In this document: positions 11,735 through 19,887 of the stretch, one piece after another | Layout of the letters: each line of letters begins with the position of its first letter | Numbering within the stretch: position 1 is the first letter of the stretch | Assembly (NCBI GenBank): GCA_022573815.1 | Contig: JACZTG010000006.1 | Span: 62,119-126,118 of the forward strand | Length of the DNA: 64,000 nucleotides | Source of the DNA: Fidelibacterota bacterium | GTDB lineage: Bacteria; Fidelibacterota; SORT01 | Reading direction: 5' to 3' | Notes under the pieces: generated by a model | The model's input: the letters and a program-made list of their open reading frames with translations, nothing else | Told to the model about the DNA's origin: nothing | The model's database searches: none | Translations under genes and position numbers: made by a program

Positions 11735-12697
11735 TTAACGCCCGTTCTTTTTAAGCATATTCAAAATTCCGAACCGCCCCCTGCCGAACTCTTCTGATAG
11801 AAGCTGAATCGCTTTTCCTTTTAAGACAGAATTAGCGGCTAACTTATCAAATCTTTTCATTAGTTTTTTTATTTCCGCTTTTTCCCATCTTTTACTGCTG
11901 TTTATCGGACTTTTTTCATCAGGGATAGCGATGTTCTCCAAAATTCCGCCGAATTTGATGTTGTCTATCTCTTTTATCTGATGATTAAAAGCTATTTCAC
12001 TTTTTTCAAAACCTACAGCTCGTCTGCCCAGACCAAGTGCGACTTTCGCCGTTCCGAATCCGCCGAGAAAAAAGTCACACACGCTGTCCCCCTCATCAGT
12101 GCTGTATAATATTATTTTTTTCAACAGCTCTAAAGGAAGCTGGTTTTTATTTTTTACCTGACCTTTTTTATACTCCCTGTTAATGATCCATACATCTTCC
12201 CTGTCGCTGTAGTTTTTCGATTTTCCGCTTTCGTCCAGATCCTCTCTTCCGAATCGAACGAATTGATTGAATGTTCTATCTCCTCCCGGTTTTTTATAGT
12301 AAAGAATATGATAATGTGAAGATATGTACTTCTTTTTCGTATAGACTCCGAAGTTATATTTCCAGATCAGATGATTCACTTCCTCCAAAGAACTGTTTTT
12401 TAATCCGTTAAGGATGTGAATTAAATTCGTGTAACCCGATACGATATAGATACTTCCCCCCGGTCGTAAGACCCGCTCAGCCTGCTCTATCCACCTTAGG
12501 CTGAAGTCGGGATATTCATCAATCGGAACTTCAATGTATCCGTCAAGAACGTAACTCTCTTCCCTGTTATAATGCTGATGAAGCTTATCCCCTTTGATTC
12601 CATAGGGAGGATCCGTAATTATAAGGTCAATGGAATCATCTTTCAGATGTTTGATTGCGCCATCAATGCAATCTTCATTGTATAGAGAATATTTCAA
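11735..12697 (-). CDS. beta-class N6-adenine/N4-cytosine DNA methyltransferase (orphan)
   Basis: 320 aa. The DPPY catalytic motif is near the N-terminus (DLIITDPPYGIKG) and the SAM-binding FxGxG-like motif is near the C-terminus (VCDFFLGGFGTAKVA). A tail of about 70 aa follows. Confidence 0.8.
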   Translation of the reverse strand: MKYSLYNEDCIDGAIKHLKDDSIDLIITDPPYGIKGDKLHQHYNREESYVLDGYIEVPIDEYPDFSLRWIEQAERVLRPGGSIYIVSGYTNLIHILNGLKNSSLEEVNHLIWKYNFGVYTKKKYISSHYHILYYKKPGGDRTFNQFVRFGREDLDESGKSKNYSDREDVWIINREYKKGQVKNKNQLPLELLKKIILYSTDEGDSVCDFFLGGFGTAKVALGLGRRAVGFEKSEIAFNHQIKEIDNIKFGGILENIAIPDEKSPINSSKRWEKAEIKKLMKRFDKLAANSVLKGKAIQLLSEEFGRGRFGILNMLKKNGR

Positions 12698-12902
12698 CTG
12701 ATTAACGGGGATATTAACATATTTATTTGAAAAATTAGCATTTTATTCCATCAGTGGCAATATCGTTTGTTTTTTTCTTAATATCGGAGATTGAAATATA
12801 TTACAGCAGTTGTTAACAGGACTTTATCCGCTAACCTTATTAGATTTTCTCCCGATAATATAATAGTGCGTATTGAAGCATAATATATAATTCAGTGATA
12901 AT

Positions 12903-15722
12903 ATGTCGAATGAATTTATGACCGTGATTAAAGAAATATTAAAAACTTTAAAGCCTTCCACACCGGAAACGGTTAGCCGTGTGCGCACTAATTTAAAGAA
13001 TGGTAATGGAGTTGCTACATTAGTTAAACCTGAGGCACCCAGGGTAATTTCAAAAGAAGAAATATCAGCTCTTCAAAAGTTAGCAGATTCCATCGGTCTC
13101 GAAATAAAAAAATTGTTACTCAAATTCGGGGCAATAAATCCCACACCGAATGCAAACACCGAATCGTCCGTCGAAGAACCGTTGACTTCTGCAACCGGAG
13201 AGTCATACATCAAAGCTACAAAAGCGCTCCTCAACCACAATTTATCGCGTTTATTGTTGCTGATTGAAAGTTCGGGAGCGGTGCCGCCTAAAAACGTGGA
13301 ATCTCTTAGGACGGAGTATCAGAATCTGATTAATTTCGATCCTCGTTCGCAAAACGAAGTGGAGATGTTTGTCAAGCAATTGAATTCATTTTTTTCTCAG
13401 CTGGTTTCCTCGGTCGAGAACCTCACTCACCGCGATATGACATCCGTTAAATTAATTATGGAAGATATATTCAAGTTGTTCGCCTCTCCGCCCCTTGTCA
13501 AGAGCTCATTGGGAGAGATGAATTTAGCGTCCATGATTAATTCAGGTGTGAACCAAACTATGGAAAAGCCGGCGTTCGATATAGCGTACCTGAAAGTTCT
13601 TTCCGGCATTCCAACTCCGGAGGCAGATTATCTGCCGGCGCTTTCCAAAGACCTCGGCGTTGTTGCAAATTTCATCAGCAAAAACGGAGCGTTACCTAAT
13701 CCGGCGCTTCAGAAAGTAATTGAACTTTTGGGAAATGGGTTCGCTGAGCCGTTAAACCGAAATGAGCTGCGAAAATATGTGAAATCAATTGGATTCGATT
13801 TAGAGAATAAGATATTCAACAGCATTAACAAGACTCCCTCATACTTAGAGACGAAATTTTCTCCTGTCAGAAGAATAATATTCAACAATCTGAGCGCTAA
13901 TCTGATTTCCATATCCGCCGACCGACAAACAGCTGAGAATTATAAAATTTTTCAAAATGGCGCAAAATTATACAGGAGTCTATTTGAATCAAACCGTCCC
14001 GCTGAAAAAGGATTGTTGCTTGCGCCGGGAACATCATCAATGGAATTGCTTTATAAGGTAAGAATGTCGCAGTCTTTGCTACATCGCGGCGTTTCTCCCA
14101 CATCGCGCAATTTACTCGCTGCCGAAGCATTGTTGGAAAATAATATTTCAATCACAAGGAAGGCGGTGGATTCACTTTTCAGAGCTATATCAAGTCTCGA
14201 TTCCGATATCGGCAGTCAGGCTGAATTAAAACATCTGATGAAAACCACAATTTTGTTAAAACAATTGAAGTTGCCGCTAAGCCCGGAAAATATTCGCTTT
14301 ATAACAGATATAAAAAATGTACAATCCTCCATATCGGGAGATTTAAATAGACTTTATACCGAGCTTCCCAATGGCAAATTATCCGGCTCAAAATCTCTGA
14401 ATAAATTTCATAACTTATCGTTGAAAATATCAGGTACGCACAAAAATACAAAAGGAGAATTACGAAGTTTGGTTGAGTTTGCAAAAATGGCAGGCATTGA
14501 AGTTCCGGAAAGCAGCTCCGGAAAACTGGGTAGACTATTATCAAAAAGCAAACACTCGTCATTTAAGGAATTAACCGGTTCCATAAATTCCGCGATTGAT
14601 TCAGCTTTACAATCTGTCAAATCAGGTAAGTCAATCGCTTTAGAGATAAATAAGATAAGAATATTAGGTCAACTCGCAGCTTCCCTTGGCGCCAACTCCA
14701 ATAACAGTGTTGCTCCAACGAATGCAAATTTAGAAAGTCTGCTCAAAGAAACAGGTATTGTCAAAACGGATTTTGAAATGAAAATCGTTTCCCGGTTGGC
14801 TGCTGCCAATGCGGATATATCTCGAGCAACTGTGCTGAAAATTTCTAATTATCTTCTGAATACGCTTAAGCTAAGCCCTGATTCCGTTAGTTCCGAGCTT
14901 ATAGACAGAGCAGTCAAAGCTGCGAAGCTGGAACTGCCATTAAATAAAAACTCCTGGAAATCCCTTGAGTCTATGGACCCGTTGTCCCCCGAAAAATCAA
15001 CTCTCATCTCTAATTATTTAATGGCGATGAACAAACAATCTCCGGAAGGACAAAACGATAACGGCTTGAAACAAATATTAGAACTCCTATTCTCTTTATC
15101 TAAGGGTTCAGCTGATAAAGCTACCTTCAAAATGGGTCGTTCGCTTTTTGAAATGCCTTTTCAGAATCATACTCTGAGGAAAAGATCAAACCTTTCATCG
15201 AAACTTAATAAAATATTTAACGGCTCTGTAAAAGGTACACTTCTCAGAACATTAAGATACGTTAAACTCCAACAGAATAAAGTCGCGCCACAGCAGCAAA
15301 ACTCGATTTTAAAGAGTATCATGGGCGCTTTGGAACAGATAGAGCAATTACAATCGAACATAACTCAAAAAGGAGAGGAATTGCTGTTCTCTTTTCCTTT
15401 TCCGGACACACCTCATGACGGTCACGCTTCATTGCGGTTCTCTAAAAAAGAATTGGATGACGGGAGTGAGGAACTGAATTTATCTATTAAACTCGCTCCC
15501 GAACCGCTTGGTCCTGTAAGTATATATATCCAAAAAAACTCATCCGCTTTCAATCTGACTGTTGACCTCGAAAGGGGAGAGTATATGAATTTACTGCGAA
15601 AAAACTTACCACAATTGATTCAACGTTTTGAAAATATGGGATTGGGCGTTCCACACATATCTTGCACAAGCAAACCGAAGCAATCTATCTCTGTAGAAAA
15701 CCTGAATAGACTTTACGCTTGA
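12903..15722 (+). CDS. FliK-like protein (C-terminal hook-length-control Flg_hook-like domain)
   Basis: 939 aa, Ser/Asn/Leu/Lys-rich and mostly helical. The C-terminal segment LNLSIKLAPEPLGPVSIYIQKNSSAFNLTVDLERGEYMNLLRKNLPQLIQRFENMGLGV follows the Flg_hook pattern (L.L.P..LG.v.v.......v.f........L...L..L...l...G). Internal units such as LLENNISITRKAVDSL and KLELPLNKNSW resemble FliK repeats. Confidence 0.55.
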   Translation: MSNEFMTVIKEILKTLKPSTPETVSRVRTNLKNGNGVATLVKPEAPRVISKEEISALQKLADSIGLEIKKLLLKFGAINPTPNANTESSVEEPLTSATGESYIKATKALLNHNLSRLLLLIESSGAVPPKNVESLRTEYQNLINFDPRSQNEVEMFVKQLNSFFSQLVSSVENLTHRDMTSVKLIMEDIFKLFASPPLVKSSLGEMNLASMINSGVNQTMEKPAFDIAYLKVLSGIPTPEADYLPALSKDLGVVANFISKNGALPNPALQKVIELLGNGFAEPLNRNELRKYVKSIGFDLENKIFNSINKTPSYLETKFSPVRRIIFNNLSANLISISADRQTAENYKIFQNGAKLYRSLFESNRPAEKGLLLAPGTSSMELLYKVRMSQSLLHRGVSPTSRNLLAAEALLENNISITRKAVDSLFRAISSLDSDIGSQAELKHLMKTTILLKQLKLPLSPENIRFITDIKNVQSSISGDLNRLYTELPNGKLSGSKSLNKFHNLSLKISGTHKNTKGELRSLVEFAKMAGIEVPESSSGKLGRLLSKSKHSSFKELTGSINSAIDSALQSVKSGKSIALEINKIRILGQLAASLGANSNNSVAPTNANLESLLKETGIVKTDFEMKIVSRLAAANADISRATVLKISNYLLNTLKLSPDSVSSELIDRAVKAAKLELPLNKNSWKSLESMDPLSPEKSTLISNYLMAMNKQSPEGQNDNGLKQILELLFSLSKGSADKATFKMGRSLFEMPFQNHTLRKRSNLSSKLNKIFNGSVKGTLLRTLRYVKLQQNKVAPQQQNSILKSIMGALEQIEQLQSNITQKGEELLFSFPFPDTPHDGHASLRFSKKELDDGSEELNLSIKLAPEPLGPVSIYIQKNSSAFNLTVDLERGEYMNLLRKNLPQLIQRFENMGLGVPHISCTSKPKQSISVENLNRLYA

Positions 15723-15793: not shown

Positions 15794-16204
15794 TTGAATT
15801 ATCAGAACAGTGAAGTAATCCGAAAGCTGCTTCAAGAGAGTCACACTATCGCGGTATATGGAGCATCAGATAAAGCGTGGAGAACAAGCAACAGTATAGC
15901 CAAATTTCTCTTGAACGTAGGATATGAGGTAATACCGGTCAATCCCAATTATGAAACGGTCTTGGGAATGAAATCTTATTCCAGTCTATTGGATATCGAA
16001 ACGGAAGTTGATATTGTGGACGTTTTCAGAAAACCTTCAGAAGTATTCTGTGTTGCAGAAGAAGCTGTTTCTATCGGGGCAAAAGGTATCTGGTTTCAGG
16101 AAGGTGTAATAAATAACCAGGCGGCAGAACACGCCCATAATAGCGGTCTTGACGTCGTTATGGACAGATGCATTATGAAAGAATATAATCGTCTGATTGC
16201 CTAA
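15794..16204 (+). CDS. CoA-binding domain protein (YccU-like)
   Basis: 136 aa with IAVYGASDKAWRTSNSIAKFLLNVGYEVIPVNP, typical of CoA_binding_2. Apparent TTG start. Confidence 0.7.
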   Translation: MNYQNSEVIRKLLQESHTIAVYGASDKAWRTSNSIAKFLLNVGYEVIPVNPNYETVLGMKSYSSLLDIETEVDIVDVFRKPSEVFCVAEEAVSIGAKGIWFQEGVINNQAAEHAHNSGLDVVMDRCIMKEYNRLIA

Positions 16205-16598: not shown

Positions 16599-19010
16599 CT
16601 AATTATCTGATTTTTTAACTATTTCCTCTTCGGTAATCGGCGTTTCTATGTATAGAAACGGTGATTTAGCTAATTCTATTACTTTTTCCTCAGGATATTT
16701 ATCGCCGTCCTCATTATACAATATTTTCAGTTTTGGACGCATTGGATGAGAGCCGTCAAGACCTATTACCTGACCGATTTCACCATTATTCAATCTCACA
16801 AGCGATTCCAAAGGAAAGACAGATATTTCCCGGACTAACGCTCTGAGAAATTTGACATCAAAGTACGTGTCTTTGAGAGCTACCACCTTTTGGAGCGCTT
16901 CATACGCAAGGTATTCATCTCTATACGTAGAGGGATGAGACACCGCCTCATACATATCTATGATAGAAATTATCTTGGCGTAATCGTGTATCTCGTCTTT
17001 CGCTGTTCCGTTAGGATAGCCTGTCCCGTCATACCTTTCATGTTCCTGCAACACTACTGAAGGCAAAAAGTTGAATTGTGTTAACTCCGGATTAGATTGC
17101 AATGCTTTTGCAATGTACTCGCTTCCGATGCTCGGGTGTGTTCTGAGTGTTGCGAACTCTTCATCGGAAAGTTTGCTTTTGGCATGCCTTATTCCTTCAG
17201 GCAAAAGCAGCATTCCCACATCATGCAGGAGCGCTGAAACAGCTAACTCGGTAAGTAATTTATTTTCATAATTTAAACCTGTAGCCAACTTGACCGAAAA
17301 GATTGCTACATTTATGGAATGGACCGGGAAATCATGAGCTTCCCGTCTTCCTATCGCTTTAATATGAAGATAATTCGATTGCTGCACTGAACTGACAATA
17401 TTCCTTGCATCAGAAATCAATTTATCAAAACCGATAGCGCCGCCTTCGGTAACTCCGGTCTCAAATTCTTTCAAATCGGAAATAGTCGTATTATATACTT
17501 CCTTATCATCCACTCTCGCCTCATAATCATATCCAGCCAATGCCGCCTCATTCACATCCACCTGGAGTGCGTCTGCTTCAGATGGAATAGGAGGTGCGAC
17601 CTGAGGTTGAGTTTGAATCGGAACGGGAGGAGGAATAACAGGCGGAGCTTGCACAGGCTGTTGGTCAGCCGGAATAAGCGTACCGGTTTCGATTGCCTGT
17701 TGATGCGTTACCGGCTGTTGAGGCAGCGGCTGCGCTGTTTGCTGAGGTTGAGCCTGAGGTGGAATATCAGCAGGATTCGGCGGCGTGACAGTTTCAGCAG
17801 GAGCGACAGGTTGAGCCGGCAGTGGCGATACCGGCGGAGGCTGAATATTAGCGCTTTGCACCGTGCTATCTGTTTCTACAGGAGGAATAGGTGGAGCAGG
17901 AGTCTCCATTTGAGTAGCGGCTTGCCGCCGCGTGTTCTCCTGAGCCACTTTGCTATCCGTGCTGCTTCCGAATATATCATTGATCATGGATTCTGTGCCG
18001 GGGTCGTTAACGGCGTTCGGAACAGGAGCTTCTGTTTCAGGTTCGATAACGGGAGGAGATAAATTGCTTTGACTATCGTCCAAAGGAAGAGGTTCAGGCA
18101 AAGCGGGCGCACTATGTTCATCTACTTCTAAGGTGCTGACAGCAGCTGCTTCTTCCCCGGAGGGAGATTCGGGTTTTTCATCAATAGGAGGTGCCGCGTT
18201 GTCCTGGATTTGTGAAGATTCTTGAACAGCGAACGGATTCGCTTCCTCCACGATGGCGGATCGGGGTTGCCCGGGCTGAGCTTCTTCCAAAGCCGGTTTA
18301 TCTTCCGGGAAAGAAGTATCCGTCTCTGCTGAACTCAAATCATCAACTGGATTTAGCTCCTCCATTATAATAGATTCTGACTGTTCGGTCACTGTTTCCT
18401 CTTGGGAATCGGGTGTTTCAGTAGGCGCCTCTTCAGCGTCTCCCAAGCCCAATTCATCAACAGGTATAGATTGAGCTCCCGCCCCGATCACCGTTTCCTC
18501 ACGGTCATCTACTTCTTCAAACTCATTTAAATCTGAATTATCCTCATTTTCCGGTTCAATCTTGGTTCTCGCTAATAGCGCCATCACTCTGCTTCTTAAG
18601 TCCGATGGATTGATGGGCAGAGTAATGTAATCATCAGCGCCGGTTTCCATCCCCATCACCTTATCGGGACCGTCAGATGAATTACTTATGAGAAGTACCG
18701 GTACATCTCCGAGAGTTGCATCTTCTTTTATCCTGCGTGCCAGGCTCAGCCCGTTCATTATCGGCAGATCAATCTCTGAAATAACCAATACCGCCGATCT
18801 TTTGTTGAGAAATTCATCCGCAGCTTCGCCGGATGTGACAAAAATAAGTTCTAAACCGATACTTTCTAAAGACTGCTCAATCGTACTTTGGATCTGAGAA
18901 TCCCCTACCACAGCCAATATACCTTTAGCTTCCGCTACAATGTTTTGTTTTTCTTTCGTTGCCGATGGGGCGCTGCTTGAAGAACGGAATAAATCTATTG
19001 ACCTCATCAT
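16599..19010 (-). CDS. response regulator with an HD-GYP c-di-GMP phosphodiesterase domain and a long disordered linker
   Basis: 803 aa. REC domain (VLVISEIDLPIMNG), then about 340 aa of acidic followed by Pro/Gln-rich low complexity, then HD-GYP (LLHDVGM ... HERYDGTGYPNG). Confidence 0.85.
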   Translation of the reverse strand: MMRSIDLFRSSSSAPSATKEKQNIVAEAKGILAVVGDSQIQSTIEQSLESIGLELIFVTSGEAADEFLNKRSAVLVISEIDLPIMNGLSLARRIKEDATLGDVPVLLISNSSDGPDKVMGMETGADDYITLPINPSDLRSRVMALLARTKIEPENEDNSDLNEFEEVDDREETVIGAGAQSIPVDELGLGDAEEAPTETPDSQEETVTEQSESIIMEELNPVDDLSSAETDTSFPEDKPALEEAQPGQPRSAIVEEANPFAVQESSQIQDNAAPPIDEKPESPSGEEAAAVSTLEVDEHSAPALPEPLPLDDSQSNLSPPVIEPETEAPVPNAVNDPGTESMINDIFGSSTDSKVAQENTRRQAATQMETPAPPIPPVETDSTVQSANIQPPPVSPLPAQPVAPAETVTPPNPADIPPQAQPQQTAQPLPQQPVTHQQAIETGTLIPADQQPVQAPPVIPPPVPIQTQPQVAPPIPSEADALQVDVNEAALAGYDYEARVDDKEVYNTTISDLKEFETGVTEGGAIGFDKLISDARNIVSSVQQSNYLHIKAIGRREAHDFPVHSINVAIFSVKLATGLNYENKLLTELAVSALLHDVGMLLLPEGIRHAKSKLSDEEFATLRTHPSIGSEYIAKALQSNPELTQFNFLPSVVLQEHERYDGTGYPNGTAKDEIHDYAKIISIIDMYEAVSHPSTYRDEYLAYEALQKVVALKDTYFDVKFLRALVREISVFPLESLVRLNNGEIGQVIGLDGSHPMRPKLKILYNEDGDKYPEEKVIELAKSPFLYIETPITEEEIVKKSDN

Positions 19011-19092
19011 ACTGAACCAATAGAAAAATATTTAACTCTCAATATAGCTCTCAACAATTTGCTTTTTCATACTTTTCATACCGACTTCTAAT

Positions 19093-19887
19093 CTATATTA
19101 CCATATTTATAAGTGCAGAATCAACTATTTTAATGTTTCTTCGCGCCGCTGTCATCAATGCAAGATCGCATATGCTGTTAATTTTCCGCGGAACTCCATA
19201 GGAAGCATTGAAAACAGCCTCTATCGCATCGTCATTCACAATTTTAGAATCCAGACCTGCTATGCTCAGCCTGTGTGATATATACTTCCCCGTTTCTTCC
19301 AAGTTGAATGAATGGAGATGATATTTTATCGCAAAACGTTGCTCAAATTGAGGCATCTTTGTAACTCTCTCTCTCAATTCGGGTTGACCGACAAGCAAAA
19401 TCGTAACTAAAAACCGGTCATTCAGCTGGTGATTCAGCAACAGTCTGAGTTCTTCAAAAACGTTATCATTTCTCATTAGTTGAGCTTCATCTATCATAAT
19501 TATTACTTCTCTGCCGGACTGAAATTTTCTGTAGAGAATGTCTTCAATCTGTTTGGAAAGTTCCACTCTGGATTTTTCCGACGCTTCTTCGCCGAGTTGG
19601 TAGATAATTTCAGCCAGTAACTCTTCCGGCTCGTAATTCGGGTTGTTCACCACCACGATTTCTCTGTCATCGTTCATCGTTTTTCCGGCTATGATTCTCA
19701 GCAGAGTAGTTTTTCCGCACCCATACTCGCCTGTCAGCATCGCCCCCCCTTTATTTTCCGTGACGGCGTACATCATCCGTTCGTAGCCTTCTTTATGCCC
19801 GTCTGAAAAATAGAAATATTCCGGGTCGGGTGTATTTTCGAACGGTTTTTTATTTAGCCCCCAATACTCAAGATACACGATTTTCAA
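19093..19887 (-). CDS. ExeA/GspA/MshM-like AAA ATPase
   Basis: 264 aa. YWGLNKKPFENTPDPEYFYFSDGHKEGYERM and the Walker A GEYGCGKTT are typical of ExeA-family secretion-associated ATPases. Confidence 0.75.
   Translation of the reverse strand: MKIVYLEYWGLNKKPFENTPDPEYFYFSDGHKEGYERMMYAVTENKGGAMLTGEYGCGKTTLLRIIAGKTMNDDREIVVVNNPNYEPEELLAEIIYQLGEEASEKSRVELSKQIEDILYRKFQSGREVIIMIDEAQLMRNDNVFEELRLLLNHQLNDRFLVTILLVGQPELRERVTKMPQFEQRFAIKYHLHSFNLEETGKYISHRLSIAGLDSKIVNDDAIEAVFNASYGVPRKINSICDLALMTAARRNIKIVDSALINMVI

Follow-up and report, generated by a model that had tools for sequence, protein, structure and literature searches.

How does a protein with the signature domain of the flagellar hook-length regulator FliK come to be encoded on a contig that carries no flagellar gene, and what could it do in cells that lack flagella? 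The question is raised by gene X in a 64,000-nt stretch of DNA from a Fidelibacterota bacterium (GenBank assembly GCA_022573815.1, contig JACZTG010000006.1, positions 62,119 to 126,118 of the forward strand), hereafter the window. It lies on contig C35 of a 2.39-Mb, 96 %-complete genome (Marinimicrobia/SAR406; G000), the close relatives of which are Candidatus Marinimicrobia, Mariana Trench single-cell genomes among them. FliK-family proteins are molecular rulers, and their C-terminal T3S4 domain (Flg_hook in Pfam) is, to our knowledge, known so far only as a ligand or switch of FlhB/YscU-type export gates. X is a genuine, selected, family-specific core-genome gene, which is retained even where the whole flagellar island has been cleanly deleted. 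We read it, with a probability of about one half, as an enlarged FliK2-type protein uncoupled from the flagellar type III export gate, because X is under the same purifying selection in lineages that lack the island, including FlhB, FlhX (a stand-alone FlhB-C protein) and FliA. The gene itself, an open reading frame (ORF), is exactly as described in a first-pass annotation of the window:

12903..15722, + strand: gene X, an uninterrupted 939-codon ORF encoding a 939-aa soluble protein

In G000, all matches to a nine-protein flagellar query, FlhA and FlhB fall on contig C33, except for a FliG paralogue on C50; none lies on the window's contig, as the first pass had noted for the vicinity of X. 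The regulon is not unusually scattered, as had been considered, but forms one compact flagellar/chemotaxis/glycosylation island of ~82 kb (C33, ~25.6-107.6 kb) with its own canonical FliK. By Pfam, the island comprises FlgB/C, FliE-J, an MgtE_N protein, FliK, FlgD, an FlbD-like protein and FlgE; MotAB, FliL/M/N/O/P/Q/R, FlhB, FlhA (the only one in the genome), FlhF, FlhG and FliA; and FlgF/G/A/H/I/K/L, flagellin, FliD, FliS, CheA and a second MotAB pair. Its flanks are a gene for an 883-aa outer-membrane protein on one side and HisS-like and HAL-like genes on the other.

All six genomes of the family (G000-G005) carry X, and its neighbours are the same in each; an independent contig from ENA has this arrangement, too. 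The six genomes differ in the state of the island:

G000 (the window's genome), genus g1: X of 939 aa; complete island on C33
G001, genus g1: X 73 % identical, with one in-frame TAG; no flagellar genes found, clean junction
G002, genus g2: X 32 % identical and truncated N-terminally by the contig end; partial flagellar cluster at the same site
G003, genus g3: X of 927 aa; no flagellar genes found, eroded island-edge fragments
G004, genus g3: X as a 238-aa remnant; no flagellar genes found
G005, genus g3, a single-cell genome: X of 930 aa; no flagellar genes found, clean junction

Full-length orthologs have 925-930 aa, and an intact X of ~930 codons is also present on a third g3-type contig (P0002). 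Queried as a concatenate, FliF, FliG, FliP, FlhB, FliM, FlgI and FlgG are all recovered in G000 and none of them in G001, G003, G004 and G005; in the same four genomes, searches with PF01312 and FliA find no FlhB, FlhX or FliA, and FlhA and canonical FliK are likewise not found. The partial cluster of G002 comprises FliF, FliG, FlgE, FliM and a 664-aa canonical FliK, its contig stopping inside fliM at the same chromosomal site. The PF01312 search retrieves neither FlhB nor a stand-alone FlhB-C protein in G001-G005, whereas G000 has both. Thus, the window's genome has flagellar genes, whereas four of its five X-bearing relatives lack them; of the two explanations offered by the first pass, a Flg_hook domain in a non-flagellar context is the better supported, although the genome itself is flagellate.

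The loss can be traced at the island site. In G001 and in the single-cell genome G005, the genes that flank the island in G000 are adjacent on one contig, so that the absence of flagellar genes is no binning artefact in at least two cases. At the G001 junction the MotB-like gene of the island edge is wholly gone, whereas the junctions in G005 and on G003:C38 retain a 3' fragment of it, with breakpoints ~50 nt apart; as the breakpoints differ between G001 and g3, at least two independent deletions of the island must have occurred. G003:C38 also retains eroded pieces of right-edge island genes, and the g3 deletion is old enough for these neighbouring remnants to have decayed; X in the same genome is intact over 927 codons. 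Whether the island is present at this one chromosomal site thus varies, even between members of a genus (G000:C33, G001:C7, G005:C19, G003:C24/C38).

Selection on X was assessed by the ratio of nonsynonymous to synonymous substitution rates (dN/dS; Nei-Gojobori). The ratio is 0.24 (dS 0.91) between G003 and G005, which both lack flagella, 0.26 between G000 and G001, with and without flagella, respectively, and 0.28 (dS 0.085) between two g2 sequences from a flagellate genus; there is no sign of relaxed constraint on X where flagella are absent (0.24 versus 0.28 and 0.26). The T3S4 part is the most constrained portion, with a dN/dS of 0.16 in both long comparisons, versus 0.27-0.34 for the N-terminal part (aa 1-280/295). 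X nevertheless evolves fast: neighbouring genes have dN/dS values of 0.02-0.09 (0.23 for an HD-GYP protein), and X is only 26-31 % identical between genera as compared to 62-87 % for its neighbours. This fast evolution, together with the several broken copies described below, is what one would expect of a relic in decay or without function, of an ORF that has survived by chance or of a mis-called gene. The selection data contradict such a relic, which we regard as very improbable: dN/dS stays at 0.24-0.28 at dS values of up to 0.9, the gene is full-length in three genera, 71 columns of the family alignment are invariant, and the domain and the promoter are conserved.

The T3S4 domain by itself could suggest that X is the hook-length ruler FliK displaced from the flagellar cluster, and NCBI indeed names the X orthologs 'flagellar hook-length control protein FliK'. 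However, the canonical ruler position on C33 is filled and X is therefore not a displaced fliK: between FliJ/MgtE_N and FlgD/FlgE stands a 642-aa FliK with a stronger domain score (68-72 bits), so that a complete regulon without any other fliK, which the first pass had named as the finding that would make X simply a displaced gene, is not what the genome holds. X resembles this FliK only over an 85-residue core at 26 % identity, and it persists where FlgE, FlhB and the rest have been deleted. On the strength of the FliK on C33 and the low similarity to it, we reject the displaced-ruler explanation, the chance of which appears negligible. Nor is X exceptional in length for the phylum: it had been called much longer than a typical FliK, yet canonical FliKs of Marinimicrobia have 632-1210 aa.

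Altogether, the genome encodes three Flg_hook ORFs: the canonical FliK, a FliK2-type protein of 409 aa (C33:70005-71234), two genes upstream of a 101-aa stand-alone FlhB-C protein (PF01312, 58 bits), and X. X is, as judged from sequence comparison, a third Flg_hook paralogue of FliK2 type, because its homology with FliK2 proteins reaches far beyond the Flg_hook core. An exhaustive HMMER search with a four-ortholog profile against 1.84 billion representative proteins yielded matches beyond the C-terminus of X in four clusters only, all from Marinimicrobia, two of them full-length (929 and 925 aa) and two fragments; the other 127 matches cover just the last 70-200 residues, and the best of these are proteins of 350-410 aa. 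The genes of the latter belong to flagellar clusters, where they follow flhA-flhF-flhG-fliA and immediately precede a gene for an FlhB-C protein of ~100 aa. This widespread pair is named fliK2-flhX in Pseudomonas putida, where it is FliA-dependent and functionally uncharacterised (bioRxiv 10.1101/2021.08.29.457346). With X kept out of the FliK2 model, hhalign aligns the X family to 23 FliK2-type proteins at 99.3 % probability (E 3e-20; X 619-937 to 59-359), and a FliK2-only hidden Markov model (HMM) gives 84 bits for X (profile positions 174-351) and 68-98 bits for X orthologs, which match up to ~260 positions (widest 94-357); canonical Marinimicrobia FliKs, by comparison, reach just 14-41 bits and match a core of ~90 positions (~266-358). 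The N-terminal beta domain of FliK2 (profile positions ~1-90) is missing in X, where the match begins at ~88-174. A word-indexed homolog search with X returned the query alone; a scan of genome contigs returned nothing with X as a single protein and family members only with the alignment.

Some further observations concern FliK2 proteins in the phylum. In G000, the pair of 409 aa and 101 aa is split by a REC-histidine kinase gene (C33:68427-71234). In other flagellate Marinimicrobia (e.g., G011:C1:409718 and G032:C11:12694), the FliK2 profile matches the N-terminal beta domain only, in small ORFs (95-127 aa) or ORFs of ~365 aa located 5-6 kb downstream of flhA; in most families of the phylum the C-terminal part of FliK2 is too diverged for detection, or missing.

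The modules of X can be delineated as follows:

15462..15680, + strand: Flg_hook/T3S4 core, Pfam PF02120, aa 854-926
15171..15689, + strand: FliK2-type C-terminal module, aa 757-929, helices followed by the beta-rich T3S4 core; Cys921 invariant
15681..15719, + strand: C-terminal tail, ending in an invariant L-x-x-L-Y-A
12903..15170, + strand: N-terminal region of ~755 aa, predicted to be all-helical, family-specific

The C-terminal Flg_hook pattern seen by the first pass is borne out by both profile and fold. PF02120 matches X with 44.7 bits (E 1.2e-11; curated gathering cut-off 29.8) and its orthologs with 35-42 bits, whereas an NCBIfam scan of X gave noise only. An AlphaFold model of aa 740-939, computed from a 35-sequence alignment, has a mean predicted local distance difference test score (pLDDT) of 77, exceeding 90 in the core. 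Searched with Foldseek against the PDB, this model retrieves both solved T3S4 domains: PscP (5cuk) as the top match (prob 0.99, at a weak E-value of 0.015) and FliK (2rrl; prob 0.98, root-mean-square deviation 2.1 Å over 64 columns, at a weak E-value of 0.38). A sequence search of the PDB with the X-family profile gave no match. By inspection, the LGPVSIYI strand in the T3S4 core of X is the counterpart of the strand with V302/I304 in Salmonella FliK, which contacts FlhB (PMC6972891). In the tail, L934, L937, Y938 and A939 are invariant in two X-family alignments. Canonical Marinimicrobia FliKs end in GYNTMEVLA or EYLA; in 12 further Marinimicrobia (664-1209 aa), nearly all have a terminal (Y/F)GYNT(M/L/V)E(V/I/Y)x(A/V), outside the Pfam domain.

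The full-length model of X is of low confidence (pLDDT 53), with ~30 helices predicted up to aa 820, and was too poor for a fold search, for which the C-terminal model was used instead. Neither a signal peptide nor a transmembrane segment is predicted in X (Kyte-Doolittle hydropathy at most 0.98 in any 19-residue window). Conservation is lowest over the first ~280 aa; within these, the ~15 N-terminal residues are themselves conserved, and a poorly conserved stretch comes next. An alternative start, ATG at 12918, yields 934 aa and may be the real one; the orthologs begin at the position equivalent to Met6. The repeated helical units that had been proposed did not hold up as a significant internal repeat (best off-diagonal score 53 versus a shuffle maximum of 48). 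The FliK2 profile matches X with one of its helical segments a second time, weakly, at aa ~222-314 (domain E 0.001-0.007), where a G-[FY]-D-x-E motif is found.

A different view of X is that of an accessory flagellar protein of the late, sigma-28-dependent class, which, like the uncharacterised FliK2, would act on FlhB-C or FlhX, would be of use only in the presence of the strain-variable island and would be a recent leftover, about to be lost, in the flagella-less genomes. Several observations speak for this view or weigh against uncoupling. The first concerns broken copies. The X of G001 has a GAG to TAG change at the invariant E301. That of G004 has suffered an exact in-frame deletion of 2040 bp, with 9 nt of microhomology, and carries a stop 8 codons before the end; in the 238-aa remnant (L016 10587-11330), the first 117 aa are fused to the T3S4 module, and the stop removes the LYA tail. 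As G004 is a single-amplified genome (SAG), this mini-X could be a natural version or an amplification artefact. On one ENA contig, X is split into 583 + 238 aa. None of the broken copies is from a genome known to be flagellate: flagella are either absent or of uncertain status in each case. The second concerns sampling and turnover: the relatives are represented by metagenome-assembled genomes (MAGs) or SAGs only, and G003:C24, with intact MotA/MotB-like genes, overlaps the junction contig C38 at 97 % identity, so that the G003 MAG mixes two haplotypes at the island site, and island-bearing strains may coexist. The island is gained or lost recurrently at one site, and the selection measured between G003 and G005 could in part reflect a flagellate ancestry or recombination with flagellate strains. 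Thirdly, in 121 Marinimicrobia genomes, Flg_hook and FlhA occur in nearly the same set outside the X family, with one exception (G120, 85 % complete, Flg_hook without FlhA); within the X family, FlhA is found only in G000, a contrast that counts for uncoupling as well.

The fourth observation is the upstream region of X, where two elements are predicted from the sequence:

12832..12858, + strand: sigma-28-like promoter TAAC-N15-CCCGATAA, with the -10 core CCGATAA at 12852-12858
12859..12864, + strand: TATAAT hexamer directly 3' of the CCGATAA core, possibly a sigma-70-type -10

The sigma-28 -10-like CCGATAA(T) lies 44-81 nt before the start in all six ortholog upstream regions from three genera, which are otherwise unalignable; the TATAAT hexamer is less conserved, being kept in g1 and g3 but not in g2. 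The promoters of flagellin and cheA in G000 read TAAA-N15-ACCGATAA, the classical sigma-28 promoter form, and the conserved core hence points to flagellar regulation of X, in line with the FliA dependence of fliK2 in P. putida. The match at -35, however, is just 3/4 in the two flagellate genera and 2/4 in g3, and a loose sigma-28 motif has 7 intergenic matches genome-wide, not above chance; because the motif count is not enriched, the promoter argument rests on conservation across genera. Around the motif, G003 and G005 have in common an identical block of 56 nt (TCATCTATCTCCGATAATATAATTAAAACAAAGCTTTAGAATAGTAAAGATTTACT; L014 2205-2311, L015 13085-13190) despite a dS of 0.91. As this block is kept in a genus without a FliA ortholog, the promoter is probably functional there and read by another factor. 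The block may contain a regulatory site or an element of the 5' untranslated region besides the promoter.

Such perfect conservation of the promoter block argues against an accessory flagellar role, as do the unrelaxed selection in the flagella-less genus and the intact X of ~930 codons in G003, G005 and P0002 while the island-edge genes of G003 decayed. We therefore hold the accessory role to be doubtful, though a serious possibility, and continue to prefer uncoupling of X from the export gate.

The genes on either side of X are:

15794..16204, + strand: CoA_binding_2 protein (Pfam), the next gene after X
11735..12697, - strand: orphan N6/N4 DNA methyltransferase (Pfam), divergent from X with a common intergenic region, a conserved neighbour

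The CoA_binding_2 gene follows X on the same strand in all seven loci examined and may be co-transcribed with it. That X is monocistronic, as first proposed, is plausible, but no terminator is predicted in the 71 nt between the two genes. On the strand opposite to X, Pfam identifies a CheY-like receiver, a REC-HD-GYP protein, an ExeA/MshM-like AAA_22 ATPase and an NAD kinase; beyond the methylase lies an adhesin-like protein with Ig/CarboxypepD_reg domains. The pair of ExeA/MshM-like ATPase and HD-GYP protein (window 16599-19887) is kept in distant Marinimicrobia families (42-46 % and 38-39 % identity), and only in the X family is it accompanied by the CheY, CoA-binding, X and methylase genes. 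Since only this pair is conserved elsewhere, the locus gives no clue to the origin of X.

The same surroundings bear on length control of the neighbouring leaderless type IV filament, on which the first pass had speculated, and on the wider idea that X is part of that machine. The filament/adhesin locus is 3.8 kb away from X, the MshM/ExeA-like ATPase and HD-GYP module are close by as well, and the neighbourhood is conserved within the family. Nonetheless, the divergent methylase separates X from the locus, other families have the MshM-HD-GYP pair without X, the CoA-binding gene or an adhesin nearby, and no co-variation was found. Type IV filaments grow from the base and provide no channel for a secreted ruler. 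Nothing supports length control of the filament, and a part for X in this machine is most improbable.

A further module came to light in the flagellar searches: an operon at G000:C50:31833-35481 encodes MotA-like and MotB-like proteins, a 389-aa YscJ_FliF_C protein and the complete FliG paralogue (N, M and C domains), with four lipoprotein-like ORFs ahead of them. FliG paralogues of this type (34-49 % identical) occur in ~80 of the 121 Marinimicrobia genomes, flagellate or not, and the operon looks like a phylum-wide non-flagellar rotor/stator-like module. A specific tie of X to it was rejected: the operon is phylum-wide, X family-restricted.

Compared with known systems, X is closest to FliK2 (PP_4328) of P. 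putida and the FliK2-type proteins of 350-410 aa, with which it is homologous over ~250 profile positions (helices and T3S4 core). Both possess a Cys strand that is conserved and end in a short tail beyond the core, neither has a characterised function, and the sigma-28-type promoter is demonstrated for PP_4328 but exists at the level of a motif for X. In contrast to FliK2, X is 2.5 times longer, with ~750 family-specific helical residues in place of the N-terminal beta domain; it stands outside the island with CoA_binding_2 rather than flhX as the next gene, and it persists without an FlhB-family protein. Salmonella FliK (PDB 2RRL) and X have in common the C-terminal T3S4/Flg_hook core with its hydrophobic V-x-I strand, a tail and a long N-terminal part. 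Their similarity is confined to the core, however: X is encoded away from the fliJ-fliK-flgD-flgE position, its N-terminal part is predicted to be helical where FliK has a flexible ruler and linker, and its presence is independent of FlgE, FlgD and FlhB. The T3S4 fold is also common to HpaC of Xanthomonas, HpaP-type proteins and YscP/PscP (PDB 5CUK), PscP being the closest structure. HpaC is an example of a T3S4 protein that acts from the cytoplasm and is not a secreted ruler (PMC2427183). These proteins act on a gate of the YscU/HrcU/FlhB family, whereas four X-bearing genomes lack such a protein.

The origin and function of X may be envisaged in the following manner. Most likely, X would have arisen from a FliK2-type gene that lost its N-terminal beta domain and gained or duplicated helical segments. 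A cytoplasmic location, a binding role of the domain and independence from flagella are what we infer for the product: X may act as a cytoplasmic scaffold or adaptor, in which the T3S4 domain and the LYA tail would bind a partner other than FlhB in flagella-less cells and the long helical region would supply a lineage-specific function. In flagellate strains, X may still dock on FlhB-C or FlhX. The broader proposal, namely that the T3S4 domain has a second function independent of type III secretion, with another partner and a helical scaffold specific to one deep-sea Marinimicrobia family, is put forward tentatively, at slightly less than even odds.

The domain, the FliK2 family and flagellar loss are already known; new are the giant orphan architecture, the site outside the island and, above all, a T3S4 protein kept in genomes without an FlhB-family protein. 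A narrow search of the literature found no description of a Flg_hook protein in an organism free of type III secretion systems. At the level of annotation, X corrects the databases, since the NCBI label is simply FliK. If the uncoupling is true, X would be the first FliK-family protein working in cells without any type III secretion apparatus. That X is kept, with a dN/dS of 0.16 in its T3S4 part, without FlhB, FlhX, FliA and all structural flagellar genes would mean either that the domain has another partner or that turnover of the island is frequent enough to keep a core-genome helper alive; either answer informs how flagellar parts are recycled and how the motility pangenome behaves in an abundant uncultivated phylum of the ocean.

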